A stretch of DNA of 64,000 bases. Source: Enterobacteria phage vB_EcoM_IME341. Positions 1,197-57,957 of the stretch are shown here, piece by piece. The first letter of the stretch is position 1, and each line of letters starts with the position of its first letter. Made by a program: the position numbers and the translations under genes. The notes under the pieces were generated by a model. It was not told the origin of the DNA and ran no database searches. It worked only from the letters and a program-made list of their open reading frames with translations. The DNA is taken from the sequence record MH051917. One strand, 5' to 3'.

Positions 1197-2204
1197 ATGT
1201 TCAAGAAATATAGCAGTCTCGAAAACCATTACAACAGTAAGTTTATCGAAAAACTCCGTACTAATGGTTTGACTGGTGGTGAATGGGTAGCACGTGAGAA
1301 GATTCATGGGACCAACTTTAGTTTAATCATAGAACGTGACGCAGTCACATGCGCCAAGCGCACTGGCCCTATCCTCCCTGCTGAAGATTTCTATGGCTAT
1401 GAAATTGTACTCAAGAACTATGCTGATTCTATTAAATCTGTTCAACATCTAATTGAATCGATTAATTACCAGTCGTACCAGATTTATGGTGAATTCGCTG
1501 GGCCAGGTATCCAGAAGAATGTGGACTACGGTGATAAAGACTTTTATGTGTTCGATATCCGAGTTACTAAGGAAGATGGTTCAGAATCTGTTCTAACCGA
1601 TACATTGATGGAAGCCTTCTGTATTATCCATAAGTTTAAGGTAGCTCCATGTCTGGCTACAGGTAGCTTTGAAGACCTTATTAAATTACCTAATGACTTT
1701 GATTCAGTTATTCCTGATTATAATTTTGCGGTGGATAACGCTGGCCTAACTATTGCAAACTCGACAGACTTTATTCCTAAGGTAGAAGGTAAAGTATTCA
1801 CGGCTGAAGGCTTTGTACTTAAACCTGATATTCCTACCTGGCTTCCAAACGGAAATCGTGTAGCGATTAAATGTAAGAACTCTAAATTCAGCGAGAAGAA
1901 AAAGTCTGATAAGCCTATTAAGGCTGCGGTAGTTTTATCCCAAGATGATATGGATTTGCTGTGGCAATTCACTGATTATGTGACAGTTAACCGTATCAAT
2001 AACGTTATTAGTAAGATTGGCGAAGTATCACCTAAAGATTTTGGAAAGGTAATGGGCTTGACGGTCCAAGATATCCTTGAAGAAGCTGCCCGTGAAGAAT
2101 TGGAATTAACTGACGCTGAAAATCCTGTTGAAGTTAAAAAGCAGCTCATTGAGTGCGTAAAAGAAACATTAAGACATGTTTGGATTGAACTAGTATCCAA
2201 ATAA
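1197..2204 (+). CDS. rnlB: RNA ligase 2 (Rnl2)
   Basis: N-terminus [12 protein letters not shown] and EKIHGTNFS nucleotidyltransferase motif I match recalled T4 Rnl2; about 335 aa. Confidence 0.85.
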
Positions 2205-2211
2205 ATGATAA

Positions 2212-2235
2212 AGGGACCGTAAGGTCCCTTTTTTT
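2212..2235. terminator. bidirectional intrinsic terminator between convergent rnlB and gp24 paralogue
   Basis: AGGGACC-GTAA-GGTCCCT hairpin flanked by A-run and T-run. Confidence 0.7.
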
Positions 2236-3517
2236 AGTTTTTATCCAATGGAGGAAGTTTAACACCAAGATAAGAACTCAATTGACTTTGATTAGCCATT
2301 TTGTCCATATCCGCACCGTCAATAATACGAGCTTCTTTGTCGTCTTTAGCGACGGTATAAGGATTCGCAGTCAATGCATACCGAGCCAATAAAGATATGG
2401 TAGGTTGCAATGAATCTGGGTCTACAATAACCTTGAATTCACCTACTGAAGTATCACCTTCATCATCAACTTCTTCGAGCCCTTCCGTATAAGGCGCATA
2501 ATACAAAGATGCGACCGTCTGCCCTTCACCCATCTGAGCATTTACACCGACAATAACATAATCACACGGACTATTCATATCAGCATAAAGTGGTAGACCG
2601 TTCTTTAATATGCCATAAGCTAATTCGTCTTGGTCTTCTTTTTTCTCAACCCAACCGGATGCAGCTAAAATAGCGGCGCAACGAGAAGAAGCTACTGCAT
2701 AAGTACCTGCAAACGAAGTCTGGCGTTGAACAGCAGAATTCATTTCACACATATAGTAATACAAGGTACGCGCTCGGTCTTGGGCGTTATCATATTGTGG
2801 GTCTGTTAAGTTCAAGACGCCTTTCTCGGAAACTCCTTGGACTTTAAAACGAGAACTTACCGTAATTAAGGACTGTAATACGTCTTTATTAATTTCTTCG
2901 GCCATTTGAATAGCCAAAATATTGTCTATAAAGTCTGGTGCATTAAACCCGTTGGATTCTAAATCCTGGGCCAGTTCTACAGTCAAAGAAGTTTTAAGTT
3001 TACGCGATTTAACTTCAGTCTGCCACTTATCAATACGGAATCCTGCTTCAGCAATCTCAGGATGGCCTTTTTCAAATTTATTGGTAAAGGCTGCATCAGA
3101 CATCATACGAATATGGCCTGCTGCAATAGCTTCTGAAATAACTTCACCCAAATCGGTTTCAGTTGTTCCTGCAAACGGAGAAGCTTCTAATACCTTGAAA
3201 ACCACACTTTCGAATTGGAACATATCACCAACAGCATATGCTTCGTCTTTATCGGTGAATTCAGGAATGTTTTTACGTTCGAACATACCAATTTCGCCTG
3301 CAAAAGTGGCTCCGCCGAGATAAGTCATTTTATCGTCTGGGTTTAAAACACGGACACCATATAATGCTGCAACAGGTTGAGTAGTTTTTTGTTCAGCAAC
3401 AAGGGCTTTAAAAATTCTTTTATTAGTTGCCTGGGTATATGAAAGAAGATTAGGACGGGCGACCTGGTTGGCCGCCGTCAAAGTTGATTCTTGTATTAAT
3501 GCATTAATCTTTTTCAT
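2234..3517 (-). CDS. second, diverged copy of capsid vertex protein gp24
   Basis: 427 aa, same length and alignable end to end with adjacent gp24 at clearly lower identity. Confidence 0.85.
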   Translation of the reverse strand: MKKINALIQESTLTAANQVARPNLLSYTQATNKRIFKALVAEQKTTQPVAALYGVRVLNPDDKMTYLGGATFAGEIGMFERKNIPEFTDKDEAYAVGDMFQFESVVFKVLEASPFAGTTETDLGEVISEAIAAGHIRMMSDAAFTNKFEKGHPEIAEAGFRIDKWQTEVKSRKLKTSLTVELAQDLESNGFNAPDFIDNILAIQMAEEINKDVLQSLITVSSRFKVQGVSEKGVLNLTDPQYDNAQDRARTLYYYMCEMNSAVQRQTSFAGTYAVASSRCAAILAASGWVEKKEDQDELAYGILKNGLPLYADMNSPCDYVIVGVNAQMGEGQTVASLYYAPYTEGLEEVDDEGDTSVGEFKVIVDPDSLQPTISLLARYALTANPYTVAKDDKEARIIDGADMDKMANQSQLSSYLGVKLPPLDKN

Positions 3518-4798
3518 TTATGCCTCGTAAATAATTGGAGGAAGTTTAACACCAAGCAGATAAGACATATTACTCTGCCCTGCCATTAAATCCATATTAG
3601 TTGCGTCTATAACACGAGCTTCTTTATCATCTTTAGCAACGGTATACGGGTTTGCTGAAAGTGCATAACGAACCATCAGAGAAATAGCCGGTTGCAAACT
3701 ATCAGGGTCTACAATAACTTTATAGGCACCAACATGTTCTTGGTCGTCTAAATCCAGACCTTCGGTATACGGAGCATAGAAAATAGAACCAACTACTTCA
3801 TTACCGCCGTAATCTTCTTTAACGCCTACGATAACATAATCTAAAGGACTATTAACATCACAGAATACAGGCAATCCATTAATCAAATAACCGTAAGCAG
3901 TTTCTGGGAGCCAAGCTTCATCTTCTGGTTTATGTTTCAACCAACCTGAACCTGCAAGCATTGCGGCTACACGACTAGATGCGACAACAAACGTACCTGA
4001 ATAAGAAGTGGTTTTCTGAATTTCAGAATTCATCTCACAAACCATTTCATATAATTTACGTGCACTTTCTGGAGCGGAATTATAGGACAAATCAATAATA
4101 CCGTTATCAGATACACCAGTTACTTTGTAACGTTTAGATACGGTAATCAAGGATTGTAATACGTCTTTATTGATTTCATCAGCCATTACAGTGGCTAAAA
4201 GGTCTTCTAAGAACGCAGGGGCGTCGAAGCCATTAGATTCCATGTCTTGGGCTAGTTCTACAGTCAAAGCGGTTTTAAGCTTACGGGACTTAACAGGGGC
4301 GTTCCATTTATTAACCTGGAATACTGCATTGCTAATTTCAACATCACCTGCTTCGAATTTTTCTGTGTGGGCCGCATCAGGAACAAGACGACAAGTTAAT
4401 GACACCAAACCTTCTTGAAGGGCATCAGCCAATTCTGTAGCGCTAGTGGATGCGAGTGGGCTTGCTTGAAGAGCCTTATAAACCACATTCTGATACTTGA
4501 AATATTCACCCTCGGCAATCGCCTGGGCCTTATCTGTGAGTTCCGGGATAGTTTCACGGTCTTTAGAACCAACTTCACCGCCATAAACGGCACCAGTTTG
4601 GAAGCTGAATTCATTATCAGGGGTAAGATATTTGACACCATACAATGCAGCAATAGGCTGGCTAGTACGTTGTTCAGCAATAATATCACGGTAAATCAAT
4701 TTGGTTGTAGCACGGGTCAAAGCAACAAGATTAGGGCGACCCAATGAGTTGCTAGAAGTAGTTGTTGACTCGCGCAGTAATTCGTTAATCTTTGCCAT
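3518..4798 (-). CDS. 24: capsid vertex protein gp24
   Basis: 426 aa; N-terminus MAKINELLRESTTTSSNS; position next to gp23 as in T4. Confidence 0.9.
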   Translation of the reverse strand: MAKINELLRESTTTSSNSLGRPNLVALTRATTKLIYRDIIAEQRTSQPIAALYGVKYLTPDNEFSFQTGAVYGGEVGSKDRETIPELTDKAQAIAEGEYFKYQNVVYKALQASPLASTSATELADALQEGLVSLTCRLVPDAAHTEKFEAGDVEISNAVFQVNKWNAPVKSRKLKTALTVELAQDMESNGFDAPAFLEDLLATVMADEINKDVLQSLITVSKRYKVTGVSDNGIIDLSYNSAPESARKLYEMVCEMNSEIQKTTSYSGTFVVASSRVAAMLAGSGWLKHKPEDEAWLPETAYGYLINGLPVFCDVNSPLDYVIVGVKEDYGGNEVVGSIFYAPYTEGLDLDDQEHVGAYKVIVDPDSLQPAISLMVRYALSANPYTVAKDDKEARVIDATNMDLMAGQSNMSYLLGVKLPPIIYEA

Positions 4799-4826
4799 TG
4801 CGCTTTCCTTATTGAGGGTATATGTT

Positions 4827-4834
4827 TATTTATA
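4827..4834 (-). promoter_or_regulatory. late promoter TATAAATA for gp24
   Basis: TATTTATA on plus strand about 29 nt upstream of gp24 start. Confidence 0.6.
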
Positions 4835-4840
4835 AAAGTT

Positions 4841-4880
4841 GTTTACAGCAAGGTTATCACATGTTACTATAGACCTATCA
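4841..4880 (+). promoter_or_regulatory. early promoter cassette (GTTTAC-17-TACTAT-AGACCTATCA)
   Basis: consensus cassette; precedes ORF 4900. Confidence 0.65.
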
Positions 4881-4899
4881 AAACATGAGGAGATTAAAA

Positions 4900-5166
4900 A
4901 TGAACAAGTTAAACTTTATTCGTACTACTCTTTCCGCTCTTGATAAAGACATCAAAGCCCTGGTAGAAAAATATGGTTCCAATCCTAACGGTAATGCAGT
5001 GAATGCACTAGTTAAGAAATACGAAGCCATGGCTTATGCTACCGACTTCTGGTGGAACGGTGAATACTCTACCCATACCAAAGACAAATCTGGTAACTGG
5101 CTGAAAATCCAAGAAAATCGTATTGACTTCCGTGATATCATCAACCGTCGTGTCAAAGCAGCGTAA
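4900..5166 (+). CDS. hypothetical protein, first gene of insert between gp24 and gp23
   Basis: ATG 4900 after GAGGAG; 88 aa. Confidence 0.5.
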   Translation: MNKLNFIRTTLSALDKDIKALVEKYGSNPNGNAVNALVKKYEAMAYATDFWWNGEYSTHTKDKSGNWLKIQENRIDFRDIINRRVKAA

Positions 5167-5169
5167 AAT

Positions 5170-5841
5170 ATGAATTATTTAATTTACAAAATAACCAATC
5201 TCATTAATAACAAGATTTATGTTGGAGCCCATGCCACTACAGATGTTAATGATTCTTATATGGGCTCCGGGGTTAACATAGTAAAATCCATAAAGAAATA
5301 CGGCTTAGAGAATTTTAAAAAGGAAATCCTTTTCAATTTCGAAACATCTGAAGAGATGTATGCTAAGGAAGCCGAACTAGTTGACGAGGCTTTTGTTATG
5401 AGAACAGATACTTATAATGCAGCTTTAGGTGGTAAGGGTAATCCTGTTATAGTAGCTTTACAGGAACCTGGGTATCGTGAGATGTTATCCGAAAAGACCA
5501 AGGCAGGTATGACCAAGGAAGTAAGGGCCAAAATGTCTAAATCGAAAACAGGTTCTAAAGAATCCAAAGAGCACCGAGAAAACAAATCTATAGCTAATAA
5601 AAAGTTTTATGAGAATAGGGATTCTCATCTTAAAGGTAGGAAACTATCGGAAGAACATAAAGCCAAAATTAGAGAGAACTCTAATAAAGGTAAGAAATTT
5701 GTATTTGTTGATATAATGATTAAAGGATATAGATTTGACAGATACGAAACCGCCGCCGAATTTTTTAATGTTACCGGAGCTACCATTCGTAATTGGATTA
5801 AAGAAACAAGGCCTCAATTTGACGATTGCTATAAGTTATAG
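5170..5841 (+). CDS. GIY-YIG homing endonuclease, SegD-like by position
   Basis: N-terminal IYKITNLINNKIYVGAH...YMGSG GIY-YIG motif; C-terminal NUMOD-like K/S-rich repeats; sits between genes 23 and 24. Confidence 0.8.
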   Translation: MNYLIYKITNLINNKIYVGAHATTDVNDSYMGSGVNIVKSIKKYGLENFKKEILFNFETSEEMYAKEAELVDEAFVMRTDTYNAALGGKGNPVIVALQEPGYREMLSEKTKAGMTKEVRAKMSKSKTGSKESKEHRENKSIANKKFYENRDSHLKGRKLSEEHKAKIRENSNKGKKFVFVDIMIKGYRFDRYETAAEFFNVTGATIRNWIKETRPQFDDCYKL

Positions 5842-39206: not shown

Positions 39207-39246
39207 GTTTACAAGGTCTATAGGCATGATACTATAGACCTATCAA
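39207..39246 (+). promoter_or_regulatory. early promoter cassette with 10-bp inverted repeat flanking the -10
   Basis: GTTTAC 39207-12; TACTAT 39230-35; AGGTCTATAG 39214-23 pairs CTATAGACCT 39232-41. Confidence 0.7.
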
Positions 39247-48492: not shown

Positions 48493-48532
48493 GTTTACAA
48501 GGTCTATAGGCATGATACTATAGACCTATCAA
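48493..48532 (+). promoter_or_regulatory. early promoter cassette, 45-bp identical copy of 39207
   Basis: identical GTTTACAAGGTCTATAGGCATGATACTATAGACCTATCAAAACAA. Confidence 0.7.
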
Positions 48533-50059: not shown

Positions 50060-50292
50060 GTATTGCAATTTATATTAAATCTGAGTCATGTGATTCTTAT
50101 CTGTATTCCTATGATACCGGAACGTCAGAAGAAAAAATCAAAGAAGATTTAGAAAGCGACTTGGATATGTTCCGACCTATTTCTGATTATATGGTCCAAA
50201 TATCTGATAGTGAAAGTCCGTCAACAGAAACGTGTGTTGAAATTATTATACGAGATATCTTTAAACAATCATGGGACCGAGACAATGAGTAA
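50056..50292 (+). CDS. small acidic protein
   Basis: 78-aa ORF, coupled. Confidence 0.4.
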   Translation: MSIAIYIKSESCDSYLYSYDTGTSEEKIKEDLESDLDMFRPISDYMVQISDSESPSTETCVEIIIRDIFKQSWDRDNE

Positions 50293-50734
50293 GAAAGCTA
50301 AGGAATTATCGGCAGGTATTTTGTTCATGACTGTTGATAAAGAACTGGTCATGGGGCGTGTAACAGGCTCTCGTAATCCAGAGAATATGCGTCATAAATG
50401 GGACATTCCTAAAGGTCATGTCGAACCAGGCGAAGAGCCTATTCAAGCGGCAATGCGTGAAACCGAAGAAGAGATTGGATTCACAGCATACGATCCTGCG
50501 TTCCTGAAAGACCTAGGTGAGTTCAAATATTCAAGCAATAAGAATCTACATCTGTTCTTATATACGGTGCCTGTGGAACACGAGCAGTTCAAGAATTGCA
50601 AATGTACGGCTTACCATACGTTCCCTGACGGTCGCACGATTCCTGAATTCGATGCGTTTGCCTTGATTAAACGTCCACAATGGGAATATGTCATGGGTAA
50701 GTCGATGTTTAAGGTTTTAGATTCGCTCTTTTGA
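50285..50734 (+). CDS. nudE: Nudix hydrolase
   Basis: Nudix box GHVEPGEEPIQAAMRETEEEIG; start at MSKKAKEL; directly upstream of e. Confidence 0.8.
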   Translation: MSKKAKELSAGILFMTVDKELVMGRVTGSRNPENMRHKWDIPKGHVEPGEEPIQAAMRETEEEIGFTAYDPAFLKDLGEFKYSSNKNLHLFLYTVPVEHEQFKNCKCTAYHTFPDGRTIPEFDAFALIKRPQWEYVMGKSMFKVLDSLF

Positions 50735-50764: not shown

Positions 50765-51259
50765 ATGGATATTTTTGATATGTTACGTCAAGACGAAGGT
50801 CTTGATTTAAATCTTTATAAAGACACCGAAGGTTATTGGACTATTGGGATTGGCCAGTTGATTACCAAAAACCCTTCAAAAGATGTTGCTCGTGCCGAAC
50901 TTGATAAGCTTATGGGCCGGGTTTGCAACGGTCGTATTACTATGGCTGAAGCTGAACAACTCTTTAACCGATCGGTTGAAAATGCTCGTAGAGCTATTCT
51001 GCGTAATCCTAAATTGAAACCTGTTTATGATGTACTGGACGAAGTTCGTCGTTGTGCTTTAATTAACATGGTCTTCCAGATGGGTGAAGCAGGTGTAGCT
51101 GGGTTCACTAACTCTTTACGTATGCTCCAACAGAAACGTTGGGACGATGCGGCAGTTAACCTGGCTCAATCCCGTTGGTATAAACAAACTCCTAATCGTG
51201 CTAAGCGCGTGATTTCAACATTTAAAACAGGTACTTGGAAAGCATATGAAAACTTATAA
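50765..51259 (+). CDS. e: endolysin (T4 lysozyme)
   Basis: 164 aa, near-collinear with recalled T4 lysozyme ([21 protein letters not shown]...[31 protein letters not shown]). Confidence 0.95.
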
Positions 51260-51548
51260 TGAATTTATCACTGAAGCCCGCGTAACCGCAGGTAAATTAG
51301 AAGCCGCTGTAAATAAAAAGGCCCATTCATTTCATGATTTGCCAGATAAAGACCGTAAGAAACTTGTAAGCCTTTATATTGACAAAGAGCGTATTCTCGC
51401 TCTCCCGGGCGCTAATGAAGGTAAACAGGCCAAGCCTTTGAATTCTGTCGAAAAGAAAATTGATAACTTTGCTTCTAAGTTTGGTATGTCTATGGATGAC
51501 CTTCAGCAAGCGGCTACCGAAGCAGCTAAAGCAATTAAAGGTAAATAA
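51246..51548 (+). CDS. internal-protein-like protein with leader [12 protein letters not shown]
   Basis: capsid-targeting leader; position matches ipIII/ipII in T4. Confidence 0.65.
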
Positions 51549-52067: not shown

Positions 52068-52367
52068 ATGAAAACTTATCAAGAATTTATTACAGAAGCC
52101 AAAGCTCCTAAAGCATTTCAAATTGGAGTTCAAGGCAATTTAGACCAAGAATATGTTGATGCTATTGTAGCAAGCCTCGGTAAACAGGGTGTACAAGTGG
52201 ATTTTGTTGATTTTACCAAAGGTAATACTTTTAATATTGTTACATCTAAAGGTTCTTTAGCTAAAGTTAAAAAGGCCTTTGGCGTAGCACAAGCATATGA
52301 AATCGACCACTCCGAATTGGAAAATAAAGGTCGCCAGAACACAATTAAAGGTTCTGGTTCTTTCTAA
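52068..52367 (+). CDS. internal-protein-like protein with leader MKTYQEFITEAK
   Basis: capsid-targeting leader. Confidence 0.65.
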   Translation: MKTYQEFITEAKAPKAFQIGVQGNLDQEYVDAIVASLGKQGVQVDFVDFTKGNTFNIVTSKGSLAKVKKAFGVAQAYEIDHSELENKGRQNTIKGSGSF

Positions 52368-52527: not shown

Positions 52528-53055
52528 ATGAAATTTTTAACTCCCATTTATCTAACCTTAATGCACGCCTTCGCTGAACGCGCCATTGAACGTTTAGACT
52601 CAGACCAATATACCTGGTATGAACCTGCTTCAAGAATGCAAGAGTTTGGTACTCTTCGACTTGATGGCGGACGCCAAACAGGTAAAACAAGTGCCCTTGC
52701 TCAGTTCGCAGCTGATTGGGTTTCCAAGGGTAATGATGTGATTGTTATGTCAAGTTCTTCGCATCGCTCGCGGGAAATCTGTAATATAATAAAGCGGGTT
52801 TCTAAGGCACAACCGCATCTTAATGTTGACCAACCCGGTTTTATCGTCTACGATACTGTTCGTTCATTTTTAGATGAAGATCATTTCCATAAGTACCGTG
52901 GGCTATCTGTTACCCGATTATTGATTATTATTGAAGAGCCGATGCGCCTTCCGGCAATGGATAAGTTCTATGAAGCTTATCAGGTAATGATTAATAAATT
53001 TATGTGCCAAGGCGACAAACCTTTACCTCTGTTCTTTGTGATAGGAATGCAATGA
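52528..53055 (+). CDS. small P-loop protein
   Basis: Walker A-like GGRQTGKTS; 175 aa. Confidence 0.5.
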   Translation: MKFLTPIYLTLMHAFAERAIERLDSDQYTWYEPASRMQEFGTLRLDGGRQTGKTSALAQFAADWVSKGNDVIVMSSSSHRSREICNIIKRVSKAQPHLNVDQPGFIVYDTVRSFLDEDHFHKYRGLSVTRLLIIIEEPMRLPAMDKFYEAYQVMINKFMCQGDKPLPLFFVIGMQ

Positions 53056-54047: not shown

Positions 54048-54096
54048 GTTTACATCTCCTGTAGACATGATACTATAAACCTATCAACTACAGGAG
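54048..54096 (+). promoter_or_regulatory. early promoter cassette; spacer CTCCTGTAG pairs with SD-containing CTACAGGAG
   Basis: GTTTAC 54048-53; TACTAT 54071-76; arms 54056-64 and 54088-96. Confidence 0.7.
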
Positions 54097-54104
54097 ATTA
54101 CAAA

Positions 54105-54563
54105 ATGTCAGAAATTAATTCAGAAGTATTCATCCGCCGCAACAAATTACGTCGTCAGTTCGAAACCGAATTCCGTGAACTGAATGCGTCCATCAAAAAA
54201 GCCGCCATTAAGAGCGGTGTCCCAGCCTTCTTTATTAAGTACTCTAATCACTTGTTGGACCGTGCTATCCAACGTGAAATCGACGAAAAATACGTTTTTG
54301 CTTTATTCAAGCAACTCCATAACCATGTTAAAGAAATCCACGAATTCTTAATCCAGGAACCTCTGCCTGATGTAGAATCCGAAATTGTCCCTGGTAAAGT
54401 GTATCGTCCATTGCGTCTCGAAATTACCGATAAAACCTTATGGCTAGGTATGACAGTAGACCGTAAACATCCTGATAAAGGATATTCCCTTAAATGTCGT
54501 ATGGCATTTGTTAACTCTAAACGTTTAGAAGGTAAAACCAGCACTAAAGTAATCTATCTTTAA
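54105..54563 (+). CDS. hypothetical protein
   Basis: 152-aa ORF. Confidence 0.5.
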   Translation: MSEINSEVFIRRNKLRRQFETEFRELNASIKKAAIKSGVPAFFIKYSNHLLDRAIQREIDEKYVFALFKQLHNHVKEIHEFLIQEPLPDVESEIVPGKVYRPLRLEITDKTLWLGMTVDRKHPDKGYSLKCRMAFVNSKRLEGKTSTKVIYL

Positions 54564-54575
54564 TAATGAGGTCTC

Positions 54576-55115
54576 ATGAAAAAAGTATTAGCCACTTTAC
54601 TATTGACAGTTAGTATGTCTGCCCATAGCGTAGAGCCTACTTTCAGTAATGAACAACTCGATAATTTACATTACGCGTATGCTTTCGGTGAACAATACCA
54701 AAAGTCGGGAAAGTTCAAAGAAAACCCTAATCAAAAAGGATTAGGATATATCATGGCCGGATTACTATGGCAGGAATCATCCGCCGGAATTAATCAAGGT
54801 TTAAATAAAGATAAGCACCATGCTTATGGCATGTTCCAAAATTACTTGCCTACGTTAAGAAGTCGTGTTCAACAGGTAGGTTGGAAGATGTCAGACAAAG
54901 AAATAATTCGTATGGTCCAAAAACGACAGAACAGTGCCTCTTGGGCCTACATTGAGCTGTCTTATTGGATTGATGTTCACAAAGGTGACCTGAGAAAAGC
55001 GATTGCTTCTTATAATGCGGGCTGGAACGTCAAAGCAGGCAGTAAGTATGCTTCTGAAGTTCTAGAAAAGGCCAATTACCTAAAATCTAAAAAGATGTTT
55101 GAGGCGGTATATTAA
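54576..55115 (+). CDS. secreted lytic-transglycosylase-like protein (SLT motifs)
   Basis: signal peptide MKKVLATLLLTVSMSAHS; catalytic-type WQESSAG...GMFQ and AYNAG-like ASYNAGWN. Confidence 0.55.
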   Translation: MKKVLATLLLTVSMSAHSVEPTFSNEQLDNLHYAYAFGEQYQKSGKFKENPNQKGLGYIMAGLLWQESSAGINQGLNKDKHHAYGMFQNYLPTLRSRVQQVGWKMSDKEIIRMVQKRQNSASWAYIELSYWIDVHKGDLRKAIASYNAGWNVKAGSKYASEVLEKANYLKSKKMFEAVY

Positions 55116-55472
55116 ATGATTAAGCAGATGACTATAGCGCTTATGTTGATCGCTCCGGGAGTATTAGCGTCACAAGTTGATGATAGCAATAATTCAATTG
55201 TTGAGTATGCTACCCGCACAGCAAAAGATTATTGTCATCCAAGTAATACTGAATGCGTTATCGAATTCAGTTCAAAAATCACAGCGGCTTTTAAAGATGG
55301 ACAGAACGACGTAGAGCATCGCAGAATGAAAGAGAAAACTCTTTCTAAAAGGTACGAGCAACGTCTAAACGTTACTGAATGTGTTCCATCTGATAAAAAG
55401 TACAAAGAAATGTGTGCGTCTATGGTAGACAGACTCGTTGACTCATACAACCGAGGATTAAACTCTAAATGA
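55116..55472 (+). CDS. secreted Cys-containing small protein
   Basis: signal peptide MIKQMTIALMLIAPGVLAS. Confidence 0.5.
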   Translation: MIKQMTIALMLIAPGVLASQVDDSNNSIVEYATRTAKDYCHPSNTECVIEFSSKITAAFKDGQNDVEHRRMKEKTLSKRYEQRLNVTECVPSDKKYKEMCASMVDRLVDSYNRGLNSK

Positions 55473-55936
55473 TTATTGATTATATTAAGGGCGATATAGT
55501 CGCCCTGTTTCTTCAAGGTAATAATGTTGCACACGGGTGCAATTGTTTCCATACAATGGGTTCAGGTGTAGCCGGACAATTGGCTAAGGCTTATCCGCCT
55601 ATTCTCGCTATCGATAAAACCACTTATTTAGGTGGGGTAGAAAAACTTGGCACGTTTACCCAAGCCACAGGTAATAATGGCCAAATTTGCTATAATCTTT
55701 ATACGCAATACGAACCTGGCCCTAATCTTGATTATGGTGCTTTAGTAAACTGTATGATAGAATTAAACCGTACCGCAAAGGGTCTTTTGTTTAAACCCAG
55801 AATTTATATTCCTCGCATCGGTTGTGGTATTGCTGGTGGTGATTGGGACAAGGTTTATCAATTGATTAATTTGTTTACTCCTGATATTAATTTAGTGGTG
55901 GTAGATTATGAAAGCCCATTACCCACATCCGTTTGA
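55469..55936 (+). CDS. macro-domain (ADP-ribose binding/hydrolase-like) protein
   Basis: GDIVAL...NNVAHGCNCFHTMGSGVAGQL resembles the macro-domain signature. Confidence 0.6.
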   Translation: MIIDYIKGDIVALFLQGNNVAHGCNCFHTMGSGVAGQLAKAYPPILAIDKTTYLGGVEKLGTFTQATGNNGQICYNLYTQYEPGPNLDYGALVNCMIELNRTAKGLLFKPRIYIPRIGCGIAGGDWDKVYQLINLFTPDINLVVVDYESPLPTSV

Positions 55937-56120
55937 CCCTAAAAACAAAGCGGAAATTATTCGACGCTGGACCGAAACCCGAGTAACCAAATGTCCTATA
56001 AAAAGTCAACACAACACCGATAAATGGTATATCGGTGAATACGTTGAATATACTTTTATAGATAAAAATAAACGTAAACATCATGTAGAAGAATATTGCT
56101 TAAAGGTGCAATGGCTATGA
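55908..56120 (+). CDS. hypothetical protein
   Basis: 70-aa ORF. Confidence 0.4.
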   Translation: MKAHYPHPFDPKNKAEIIRRWTETRVTKCPIKSQHNTDKWYIGEYVEYTFIDKNKRKHHVEEYCLKVQWL

Positions 56121-56302
56121 GTCTGAGTAAAGAACAGAAAGATAAATTGTTTGAGCTTATCCATGAGCTTTTGGATGAGCATACAGAAGCAAACGCCTTT
56201 TATGATGAATACGGTCCAATAGATGCCGAACATCAGGAAGAATTTGCCAATCGATTTGATGAGAAAGAAAATGAATTAATAGCTTATGTAAATAGTCTTT
56301 AA
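56111..56302 (+). CDS. small acidic protein
   Basis: ATG 56111 after AAGGTG. Confidence 0.4.
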   Translation: MAMSLSKEQKDKLFELIHELLDEHTEANAFYDEYGPIDAEHQEEFANRFDEKENELIAYVNSL

Positions 56303-56311
56303 GAAGGTAAT

Positions 56312-56884
56312 ATGGCCCAACTTTATTTTCACTACGCAGCAATGAATTCCGGGAAGACCGCTTCATTGCTAACAGCCGCTCATAACTACAAAGAACGTGG
56401 TATGGGCGTACTTCTTTTAAAGCCTGCGATAGACAATAGAGAATCAAGCCATAGCATTTCGTCTCGTATAGGGATTAGCCAAGAGGCTAATGCAGTGACT
56501 CCAGATATGGACCTATACGAGTTCTATCGTTGGGCTGAATCTCAAAAAGATATCCACTGCGTGTTTGTGGATGAAGCACAGTTCTTAGAACCAATACAGA
56601 TAAAACAACTGGCAAAGATAGTAGACAATTATAATGTTCCAGTTATGTGCTATGGGCTAAGAACTGATTTTCAGGGTAAACTGTTTCCTGGTTCTGCTGA
56701 ATTACTCGCTACAGCAGATAAACTCGTTGAGTACAAAGGTGTGTGCCATTGTGGACGTAAAGCTACTATGACGGCTCGTATCCAAGATGGTATCGCAATT
56801 AAGGACGGTGACCAAGTTTCTATAGGTGGCAACGATTCTTACGTGTCATTGTGCAGGAAGCACTGGATAGAAATAACGAGTTGA
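56312..56884 (+). CDS. tk: thymidine kinase
   Basis: N-terminal P-loop YFHYAAMNSGKT; 190 aa. Confidence 0.9.
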   Translation: MAQLYFHYAAMNSGKTASLLTAAHNYKERGMGVLLLKPAIDNRESSHSISSRIGISQEANAVTPDMDLYEFYRWAESQKDIHCVFVDEAQFLEPIQIKQLAKIVDNYNVPVMCYGLRTDFQGKLFPGSAELLATADKLVEYKGVCHCGRKATMTARIQDGIAIKDGDQVSIGGNDSYVSLCRKHWIEITS

Positions 56885-57926: not shown

Positions 57927-57931
57927 TCAAA

Positions 57932-57957
57932 GGTCTCACTTCGGTGGGACCTTTTTT
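57932..57957 (+). terminator. intrinsic terminator
   Basis: GGTCTCAC-TTCG-GTGGGACC + T6. Confidence 0.75.

Follow-up and report, generated by a model that had tools for sequence, protein, structure and literature searches.

The early genes vs.1, vs and tk.4 of Enterobacteria phage vB_EcoM_IME341: two proteins with predicted export signals and a Gln-type macrodomain protein

Gene arrangement and predicted early transcription

A stretch of 64,000 nucleotides (nt) of Enterobacteria phage vB_EcoM_IME341 (sequence record MH051917), hereafter referred to as the window, was analysed with a focus on positions 54576-55936, where three plus-strand open reading frames (ORFs) are located with exactly the boundaries given in the initial annotation. 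By sequence and synteny, these ORFs are orthologues of the phage T4 early genes vs.1, vs, and tk.4:

54576-55115, plus strand: vs.1, 179 amino acids (aa), predicted Sec-exported protein resembling family-1 lytic transglycosylases
55116-55472, plus strand: vs, 118 aa, orthologue of the "valyl-tRNA synthetase modifier", predicted to be exported; PHROG 1256, homologues with PF26829
55469-55936, plus strand: tk.4 (adfM), 155 aa, cytoplasmic stand-alone Gln-type macrodomain; Pfam Macro

The description of the three genes as coupled is borne out by the TAA stop codon of vs.1, which directly abuts the ATG of vs, and by an ATGA overlap of vs and tk.4; furthermore, tk.4 overlaps the next gene downstream by 29 nt. 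Over 3 kb around the genes, the sequence shares 97.9% identity with Escherichia phage IME08 (Dhakavirus, Straboviridae), for which regB, vs.1, vs, tk.4, tk.3, tk.2, and tk are annotated at the matching stretch, and the gene order is common to T4 and the window. Identity to the T4 proteins amounts to 67% for Vs.1, 46% for Vs, and 54% for Tk.4. Due to PHROG E-values of 1.9e-67, 3.7e-34, and 6.1e-67 for Vs.1, Vs, and Tk.4, respectively, tblastn matches of Vs.1 in 2,040 and of Vs in 794 phage records, and 358 protein clusters matching Tk.4, they are regarded as real genes and not as chance ORFs. The genes as such are already known, being annotated in hundreds of T4-like genomes; the initial annotation did not name them as vs.1, vs, and tk.4. 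The motifs it had quoted are all present, namely WQESS (residues 65-69), GMFQ (85-88), and SYNAG (145-149) in Vs.1 as well as GDI (8-10) and HGCNCFHTMGSGVAGQL (22-38) in Tk.4. Taken as a whole, the locus is read with a good deal of confidence as the T4-like early genes vs.1-vs-tk.4, of which Tk.4 would act against DarT2, Vs.1 as an exported transglycosylase, and Vs as an exported partner.

The early expression assumed in the initial annotation is supported by a promoter motif, as far as transcription can be predicted from sequence. The features delimiting the presumed early unit and the genes flanking vs.1, vs, and tk.4 therein are as follows:

54048-54076, plus strand: T4-early-type promoter GTTTACA-N14-TGaTACTAT, 29 nt upstream of regB, fitting the T4 early consensus
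54105-54563, plus strand: regB endoribonuclease gene, first gene of the unit (Pfam REGB_T4, E 4.7e-69; same position in T4 and IME08)
55908-56884, plus strand: tk.3 (DUF7202), tk.2 (DUF7438), and tk (thymidine kinase), based on Pfam matches and the IME08 annotation
57929-57954, plus strand: strong intrinsic-terminator-like hairpin downstream of rI and rI.-1, consisting of an 11-bp stem and a subsequent T-run

In the window, GTTTAC-N13-16-TGnTAnnnT was counted 11 times, exclusively on the plus strand, compared to 0.22 occurrences expected from shuffled sequences. The copy at 54048 is likely the start of the transcription unit holding vs.1, vs, and tk.4, and the hairpin at 57929-57954 likely its end. 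Due to the fact that the next copy of the motif (57967) follows this strong hairpin, the early unit likely extends over regB, vs.1, vs, tk.4, tk.3, tk.2, tk, one further ORF, rI, and rI.-1.

Vs and Vs.1, two proteins with predicted signal peptides

Signal peptides were called with a simple script evaluating hydrophobicity, charge, and the -3/-1 rule, a Sec signal being defined by a basic n-region, a hydrophobic h-region of at least 10 residues, and small residues at positions -3 and -1. The predicted signal peptide of Vs.1 is encoded by positions 54576-54629, with cleavage between AHS and VEP, and that of Vs by positions 55116-55169, with cleavage between VLA and SQ, leaving a mature protein of approximately 100 aa. 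Tk.4 lacks a signal-peptide-like N-terminus. This is in agreement with the initial annotation, in which the first two proteins had been described as secreted and the third as cytoplasmic. A signal peptide is present in 40 out of 40 Vs.1 homologues, and all 26 members of the Vs family combine a signal peptide with four invariant cysteines (C40, C47, C89, and C100 in Vs). The "second secreted Cys-containing protein" of the initial annotation is therefore well described as such, and its gene is the one annotated as valyl-tRNA synthetase (ValRS) modifier: besides the PHROG 1256 match, PF26829 is found in 27 out of 27 homologue clusters. T4 Vs has the same length and position, and the mismatch between predicted export and name applies to the whole family.

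In the 26 family members the N-terminal approximately 20 residues of Vs vary in sequence, while the remainder of the protein is highly conserved. Retained in the variable part are a basic n-region, a hydrophobic core of 10-14 residues, and V-x-A near residue 19, and the first acidic residue is always found beyond position 18. Distant members keep the same Sec plan, and in one of them (P0251, 108 aa) the ordinary Sec signal is replaced by a lipobox (LSG followed by C), with the four cysteines in the mature part. In the AlphaFold2 model of Vs (predicted local distance difference test, pLDDT, 83) four helices are formed, with the cysteines at the ends of the H1-H2 and H3-H4 loops, a placement as expected for two disulfide staples if the model holds. 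The family is small and phage-restricted (27 clusters), with eight proteins in a profile search of 1.84 billion representatives; no domain fusion was detected in this search, a 3,694-aa match being a low-complexity artefact. A Foldseek comparison of the model to the PDB returned no meaningful neighbour (all E-values at least 1.4, template modelling scores of 0.35 or below among the higher-ranked matches) and no Spackle-like or lysozyme-inhibitor-like fold, and a profile search against the PDB was empty.

These features predict export and disulfide bonds, which is hard to square with binding to a cytoplasmic enzyme. The vs product binds the cytoplasmic host ValRS according to a later paper that cites Muller and Marchin (1975, 1977) for this, and as far as the classical report is represented there, it conflicts with, and weighs against, the predicted export of Vs. 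In the literature searched, no mention of the ValRS modifier together with a signal peptide was found.

A further line of evidence is given by the linkage of vs to vs.1. Their adjacency with touching or overlapping codons is kept down to 43% Vs.1 identity, also where tk.4 and tk are absent. In T4-like phages of Acinetobacter, a pair of additional small ORFs, likewise with secretion signals, separates vs.1 and vs from the downstream antiholin gene rI, resulting in five consecutive exported proteins. Such loci, which lack tk.4 and tk, are found in Acinetobacter phage Berthold (NC_049490, positions 1459-3305 of locus L008) and at positions 3501-5311 of locus L003, and each of the five Berthold proteins was labelled "putative periplasmic secretion signal" by the depositors. 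Because tk.4 is missing at that spot while vs.1 and vs stay together, tk.4 is, judged from gene context, not functionally tied to vs.1 and vs. The idea of all three genes as a single functional unit was accordingly rejected for tk.4.

Fitness data are available for the T4 orthologues from a transposon insertion study (bioRxiv 10.1101/2025.11.20.689424, 2025 preprint). Insertion counts in LB (supplementary file 7) are 26.6 for vs and 22.6 for vs.1 and thus roughly ten-fold lower than those of regB, tk.4, and vs.3 (179-652). In M9-glucose, vs insertions drop with a log2 fold change of -2.19 (q = 0) and vs.1 insertions with -0.87 (p 0.0055, q 0.16), tk.4 being flat, and in strain CFE299 insertions in both vs and vs.1 drop (vs.1 q 0.015). 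The text of the preprint does not discuss vs.1, and the vs.1 signal could be explained by polarity of vs.1 insertions on vs.

Two accounts of Vs have to be weighed. Due to the signal peptides, the lipobox, the cysteines, the adjacency, the shared drops of T4 insertions, and the insolubility in the cytoplasm described below, Vs is viewed as an exported protein working with Vs.1. Vs would be exported and disulfide-bonded, and its gene is conserved as the partner of vs.1, to which it is translationally linked. We put forward tentatively, as one possibility, that Vs is a disulfide-stapled periplasmic protein which acts with Vs.1 as an early envelope-directed module, e.g., as a regulator or inhibitor, possibly in lysis timing or superinfection. 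In that case, the ValRS label would go back to an ORF assigned in error, to an activity exerted before export or as moonlighting, or to an association after lysis.

The other account, which we consider rather unlikely, takes Vs as a truly cytoplasmic ValRS modifier whose hydrophobic N-terminus does not function in export and whose position next to vs.1 is coincidental packing; as variants, the N-terminus could contribute to the surface that binds ValRS, or infected cells could export Vs inefficiently. ValRS binding is stated by every annotation and by the Muller and Marchin reports in the form in which they are cited, and the defect of the T4 vs knockout is specific to minimal medium, which a translation-related role could explain. 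It is difficult to reconcile with this account, however, that the N-terminus varies in sequence and yet keeps the Sec pattern with V-x-A in 26 members and in distant ones, that one member carries a lipobox instead, and that the four invariant cysteines flank two helix-hairpin loops in a manner resembling disulfide staples in the model. The same applies to the continued joining to vs.1 in a series of five exported proteins closing with rI and to the secretion signal recorded independently by the Berthold depositors. In addition, T4 Vs produced in the cytoplasm with an N-terminal His-tag was insoluble and formed inclusion bodies. The predicted mature T4 Vs has a mass of 11.1 kDa; the purified ValRS factor is said to have been approximately 10 kDa in size, and an 11-kDa factor would itself imply removal of a leader. 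If Vs is indeed exported, a textbook annotation approximately fifty years old would be overturned or complicated, and vs.1-vs would represent a hitherto unstudied periplasmic module of early infection in a phage that ranks among the best studied. What is added here is the documentation of the mismatch between name and sequence of Vs, together with the conserved linkage to an exported lytic-transglycosylase-like protein.

Considering Vs.1 itself, Glu-Ser, GxxQ, and YNxG are the motifs of family-1 lytic transglycosylases. All of them are found in Vs.1 in the arrangement typical of GH23, i.e., catalytic Glu67 with Ser69, G85 with Q88, and Y146, N147, and G149, and in 40 homologues reaching down to approximately 43% identity the residues W65, E67, S69, G85, Q88, N89, E127, W131, Y146, N147, and G149 are invariant. 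A conserved second acidic residue after Glu67 is lacking, and therefore Vs.1 fits a transglycosylase rather than a lysozyme. The AlphaFold2 model of the mature protein (mean pLDDT 90.1) shows the lysozyme-like GH23 fold: with this model, lytic transglycosylases and g-type lysozymes were top-ranked by Foldseek, albeit with weak E-values, and active transglycosylases are aligned at 2.5-3.0 A root mean square deviation (rmsd). The secreted protein with soluble-lytic-transglycosylase (SLT) type motifs of the initial annotation thus finds its counterpart in a signal peptide, an SLT/GH23 fold in the model, and a catalytic Glu.

Vs.1 is most likely a Sec-exported, single-domain family-1 lytic transglycosylase, which would cleave host peptidoglycan in the periplasm from early infection onwards. 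Several observations weigh against this assignment. The Pfam SLT score (PF01464, 15.9 bits) stays below the threshold of 21.3, PDB sequence searches with Vs.1 reach an E-value of approximately 0.3 only, and in the literature searched muralytic activity, including production of 1,6-anhydroMurNAc, was not found for Vs.1. Some Vs.1 homologues carry a precomputed PF01464 match, and the marginal SLT similarity was already pointed out in 2006.

The sub-threshold score and the missing activity reports, together with the fact that vs.1 is non-essential in T4, would also suit an inactive, lysozyme-like fold that binds peptidoglycan or serves as a decoy, e.g., by blocking transglycosylases of the host or lysozymes from superinfecting phages. 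This is considered improbable, since the invariance of Glu-Ser, GxxQ, and YNxG in the 40 homologues is as expected of an active site and the fold aligns with that of active enzymes.

Slt70, MltF, MltC, MltE, and EtgA of family 1 share the three motifs with Vs.1 at a similarity of approximately 15-19% only. Similar to the "specialised" EtgA, Vs.1 is small, has a single domain, and carries a Sec signal, but unlike the family-1 enzymes it is encoded by a lytic phage, in an early unit and not with the lysis genes. The initial annotation had considered an early periplasmic muralytic enzyme unusual. Early expression and an exported transglycosylase-like protein are both supported by the present analysis; its being unusual within the group is not, since this is a conserved trait of T4-like phages. 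Judged from homologues, an exported early transglycosylase-like protein is a widespread trait, the 2,040 phage records with Vs.1-like genes including FelixO1-like and Vi1-like myoviruses.

Vs.1-like secreted SLT proteins of approximately 30% identity were observed in FelixO1-like phages and Kuttervirus, among the loci being those of Escherichia phage pinkbiff (positions 1501-2049 of locus L006) and Salmonella phage vB_SenAc-pSC20 (positions 1471-2088 of locus L007); these two loci lack a Vs-like neighbour. In the FelixO1-like phage, the Vs.1-like gene is located directly after rIIA-rIIB and is annotated as "putative lysin".

Tk.4 and the Gln-type macrodomains

Tk.4 reaches 33.1 bits with Pfam Macro (PF01661; gathering threshold 22, E 5.9e-8) over model positions 2-117 of 118, so that the macro-domain protein of the initial annotation was correctly recognised. 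Orthology to T4 Tk.4, also named AdfM, is apparent from the above identity, which extends over the full 155 aa, and from the location between vs and tk.3 in T4 and IME08. Both proteins have the same H22, N25, and Q80 and the same position; they differ in the genus of the phage (Tequatrovirus for T4 versus Dhakavirus), and the phenotype data are those of T4.

In the screen of a T4 transposon library against DarTG2, tk.4 emerged as the only significant hit, and a clean tk.4 knockout of T4 was sensitised to DarTG2, whereupon the gene was named adfM for anti-DarT factor, macrodomain (bioRxiv 10.1101/2025.11.20.689424). The reversal of DarT-type DNA ADP-ribosylation proposed in the initial annotation has hence received genetic support in the T4 orthologue, while no support was found for the alternative target named there, the phage's own Alt/Mod marks. 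As the idea of DarT reversal was already demonstrated for the T4 orthologue in 2025, the value added here lies in the sub-classification of the macrodomain.

H22, N25, Q80, and a GCGIAGG loop represent the residues of a Gln-type macrodomain, and neither Q80 nor N25 varies among 34 diverse homologues of Tk.4. A family profile built from these 34 sequences matches BT1257 of Bacteroides (1e-20), SCO6735 of Streptomyces coelicolor (2e-17), TARG1 (3e-17), and DarG (5e-11 and 1.6e-8), and the ALC1-like class to which SCO6735 and BT1257 belong provides the best solved-structure matches. In alignments to 5e3b and 2afc, Tk.4 has the Gln at the Lys position, held by an Asn, that is typical of SCO6735 and BT1257; Asn, His, and the GCGxAGG loop are common to these proteins as well, equivalents of SCO6735 His24, Asn27, Gln85, and the glycine-rich loop being retained. 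The identity to SCO6735 and BT1257 is approximately 25% only, and the loop after the Gln is shorter in Tk.4. SCO6735 and BT1257 are of the chromosomal antitoxin type, whereas Tk.4 is a phage counter-defence protein.

Gln80 aligns with the catalytic Lys of TARG1 (K84), DarG (K80), and PhiKZ gp104, and TARG1 D125 aligns with Ala122; the catalytic lysine of the DarG/TARG1 type is thus replaced by Gln80 in Tk.4. With the NCBIfam DarG model NF048014, Tk.4 scores 20.2 bits compared to an equivalog cut-off of 250 and covers model positions 3-138 of 338, the macrodomain part alone. A classification as a strict DarG homologue was rejected because the catalytic Lys is replaced, the domain architecture differs, and the NCBIfam cut-off is missed, and by its sequence Tk.4 belongs with the Gln-type, SCO6735-like macrodomains and not with the DarG type. 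The DarG macrodomain and PhiKZ gp104 agree with Tk.4 in fold class and in the presumed target, DarT2-modified DNA, but both keep the lysine of "FPTK" where Tk.4 has "YTQ", and the C-terminal DarT-binding domain of DarG is absent from Tk.4.

PhiKZ gp104, for which removal of ADP-ribose from DarT2-modified DNA was shown in vitro, has also been named AdfM (2026, Cell Reports, PMC13309987). Tk.4 and gp104 are 20% identical, and gp104 matches the DarG macrodomain of M. tuberculosis with an E-value of 9e-25. As judged from these sequences, the name AdfM covers two different macrodomain lineages, the T4 type with Gln and the PhiKZ type, a Lys-type relative of DarG. Phages would then have recruited two macrodomain lineages that differ in chemistry to counter one and the same defence, and mutants or inhibitors of the T4-type AdfM would have to be designed against Gln80 and Asn25 and not against a lysine.

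According to a 2022 study, SCO6735 hydrolyses thymidine-linked ADP-ribosyl-DNA and rescues cells from DarT, with all activity lost in the Q85A mutant and almost all in N27S. Its authors proposed a water-mediated mechanism and noted that this Gln distinguishes the SCO6735/ALC1 branch from both DarG and TARG1. If the functions of SCO6735 and of the T4 protein carry over to phage vB_EcoM_IME341, Tk.4 most likely removes the ADP-ribose which host DarT2 places on thymidines of single-stranded phage DNA, and this removal would restore replication. Gln80 would probably position the distal ribose held by Asn25, with an activated water performing the chemistry in the manner of SCO6735, and the catalytic lysine of DarG and TARG1 would not be used. 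Two points weigh against this assignment. The DarTG2 phenotype comes from an orthologue of 54% identity, from a preprint, and from genetics only. Furthermore, SCO6735 has a Val (or Ile) at position 25 and the DNA-contacting residues Lys34 and Lys89, in place of which Tk.4 has Gly23, Ser32, and a shorter loop at Lys89, part of the DNA-binding "mobile loop" of SCO6735 being absent; therefore the chemistry of Tk.4 may differ in detail from that of SCO6735.

It is considered improbable that Tk.4, instead of acting on DarT-modified DNA, reverses the marks set by the phage enzymes Alt, ModA, and ModB or functions as an ADP-ribose-1''-phosphate phosphatase or O-acetyl-ADP-ribose deacetylase. Such roles are suggested by the label "phosphatase" in PHROG and RefSeq (also "A1pp"), by a profile match to yeast Poa1p, an ADP-ribose 1''-phosphate phosphatase (E 4e-14, N-terminal half only), and by the fact that SCO6735 hydrolyses protein-linked ADP-ribose too. 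The label "phosphatase", however, merely goes back to an older name for the macro (A1pp) domain. Arginine is the residue modified by Alt, ModA, and ModB, and macrodomains of Tk.4's class are not known to cleave the arginine N-glycosidic ADP-ribose linkage, which speaks against these enzymes' marks as the target. T4 tk.4 insertions, moreover, were neutral in LB, M9, and the other conditions consulted, and tk.4 was the single hit against DarTG2.

A gene for a NudE-type nudix hydrolase (50210-50734), approximately 4.7 kb upstream, adjoins the lysozyme gene e (50765-51259). According to the T4 record, NudE acts on ADP-ribose, which Tk.4 would set free; any functional connection is purely speculative.

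Further transcription signals and neighbouring genes

The 11 copies of the early motif start at positions 442, 4841, 39207, 39775, 43015, 48493, 51551, 54048, 57967, 61227, and 62962 and together map the predicted early transcription units of the window. The same 29-mer is present at 39207 and at 48493. In case of generic sigma-70 promoters and terminators, scans gave no enrichment over shuffled sequences, the informative scan being that for the T4-specific early motif. One further signal was recorded within tk.4:

55738-55763, plus strand: MotA-box-type middle-promoter pattern inside tk.4, an uncertain pattern match

This pattern is weakly enriched in the window (8 matches versus 3.2 expected) and, if real, would serve tk.3, tk.2, and tk. 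The terminator scan also picked up a GC-rich 8-bp hairpin, AGGGCGATATAGTCGCCCT, at positions 55488-55506, 20 nt into the tk.4 coding sequence. Since 8 terminator-like matches were obtained in the region compared to 4.8 +/- 2.1 expected, this hairpin may be due to chance.

Upstream of regB, a Vs.8 orthologue (52528-53055, PHROG 1488) shows weak matches to P-loop NTPases and terminase-N-like sequences, all of them sub-threshold (E 0.002-0.07). The proteins encoded at 51246-51548 (100 aa) and 52068-52367 (99 aa) have near-identical N-terminal starts, one of which begins with MKTYQEFITEA, and their IME08 counterparts are labelled ipII and internal head protein. We presume that this common start resembles the capsid-targeting sequence of the T4 internal proteins.

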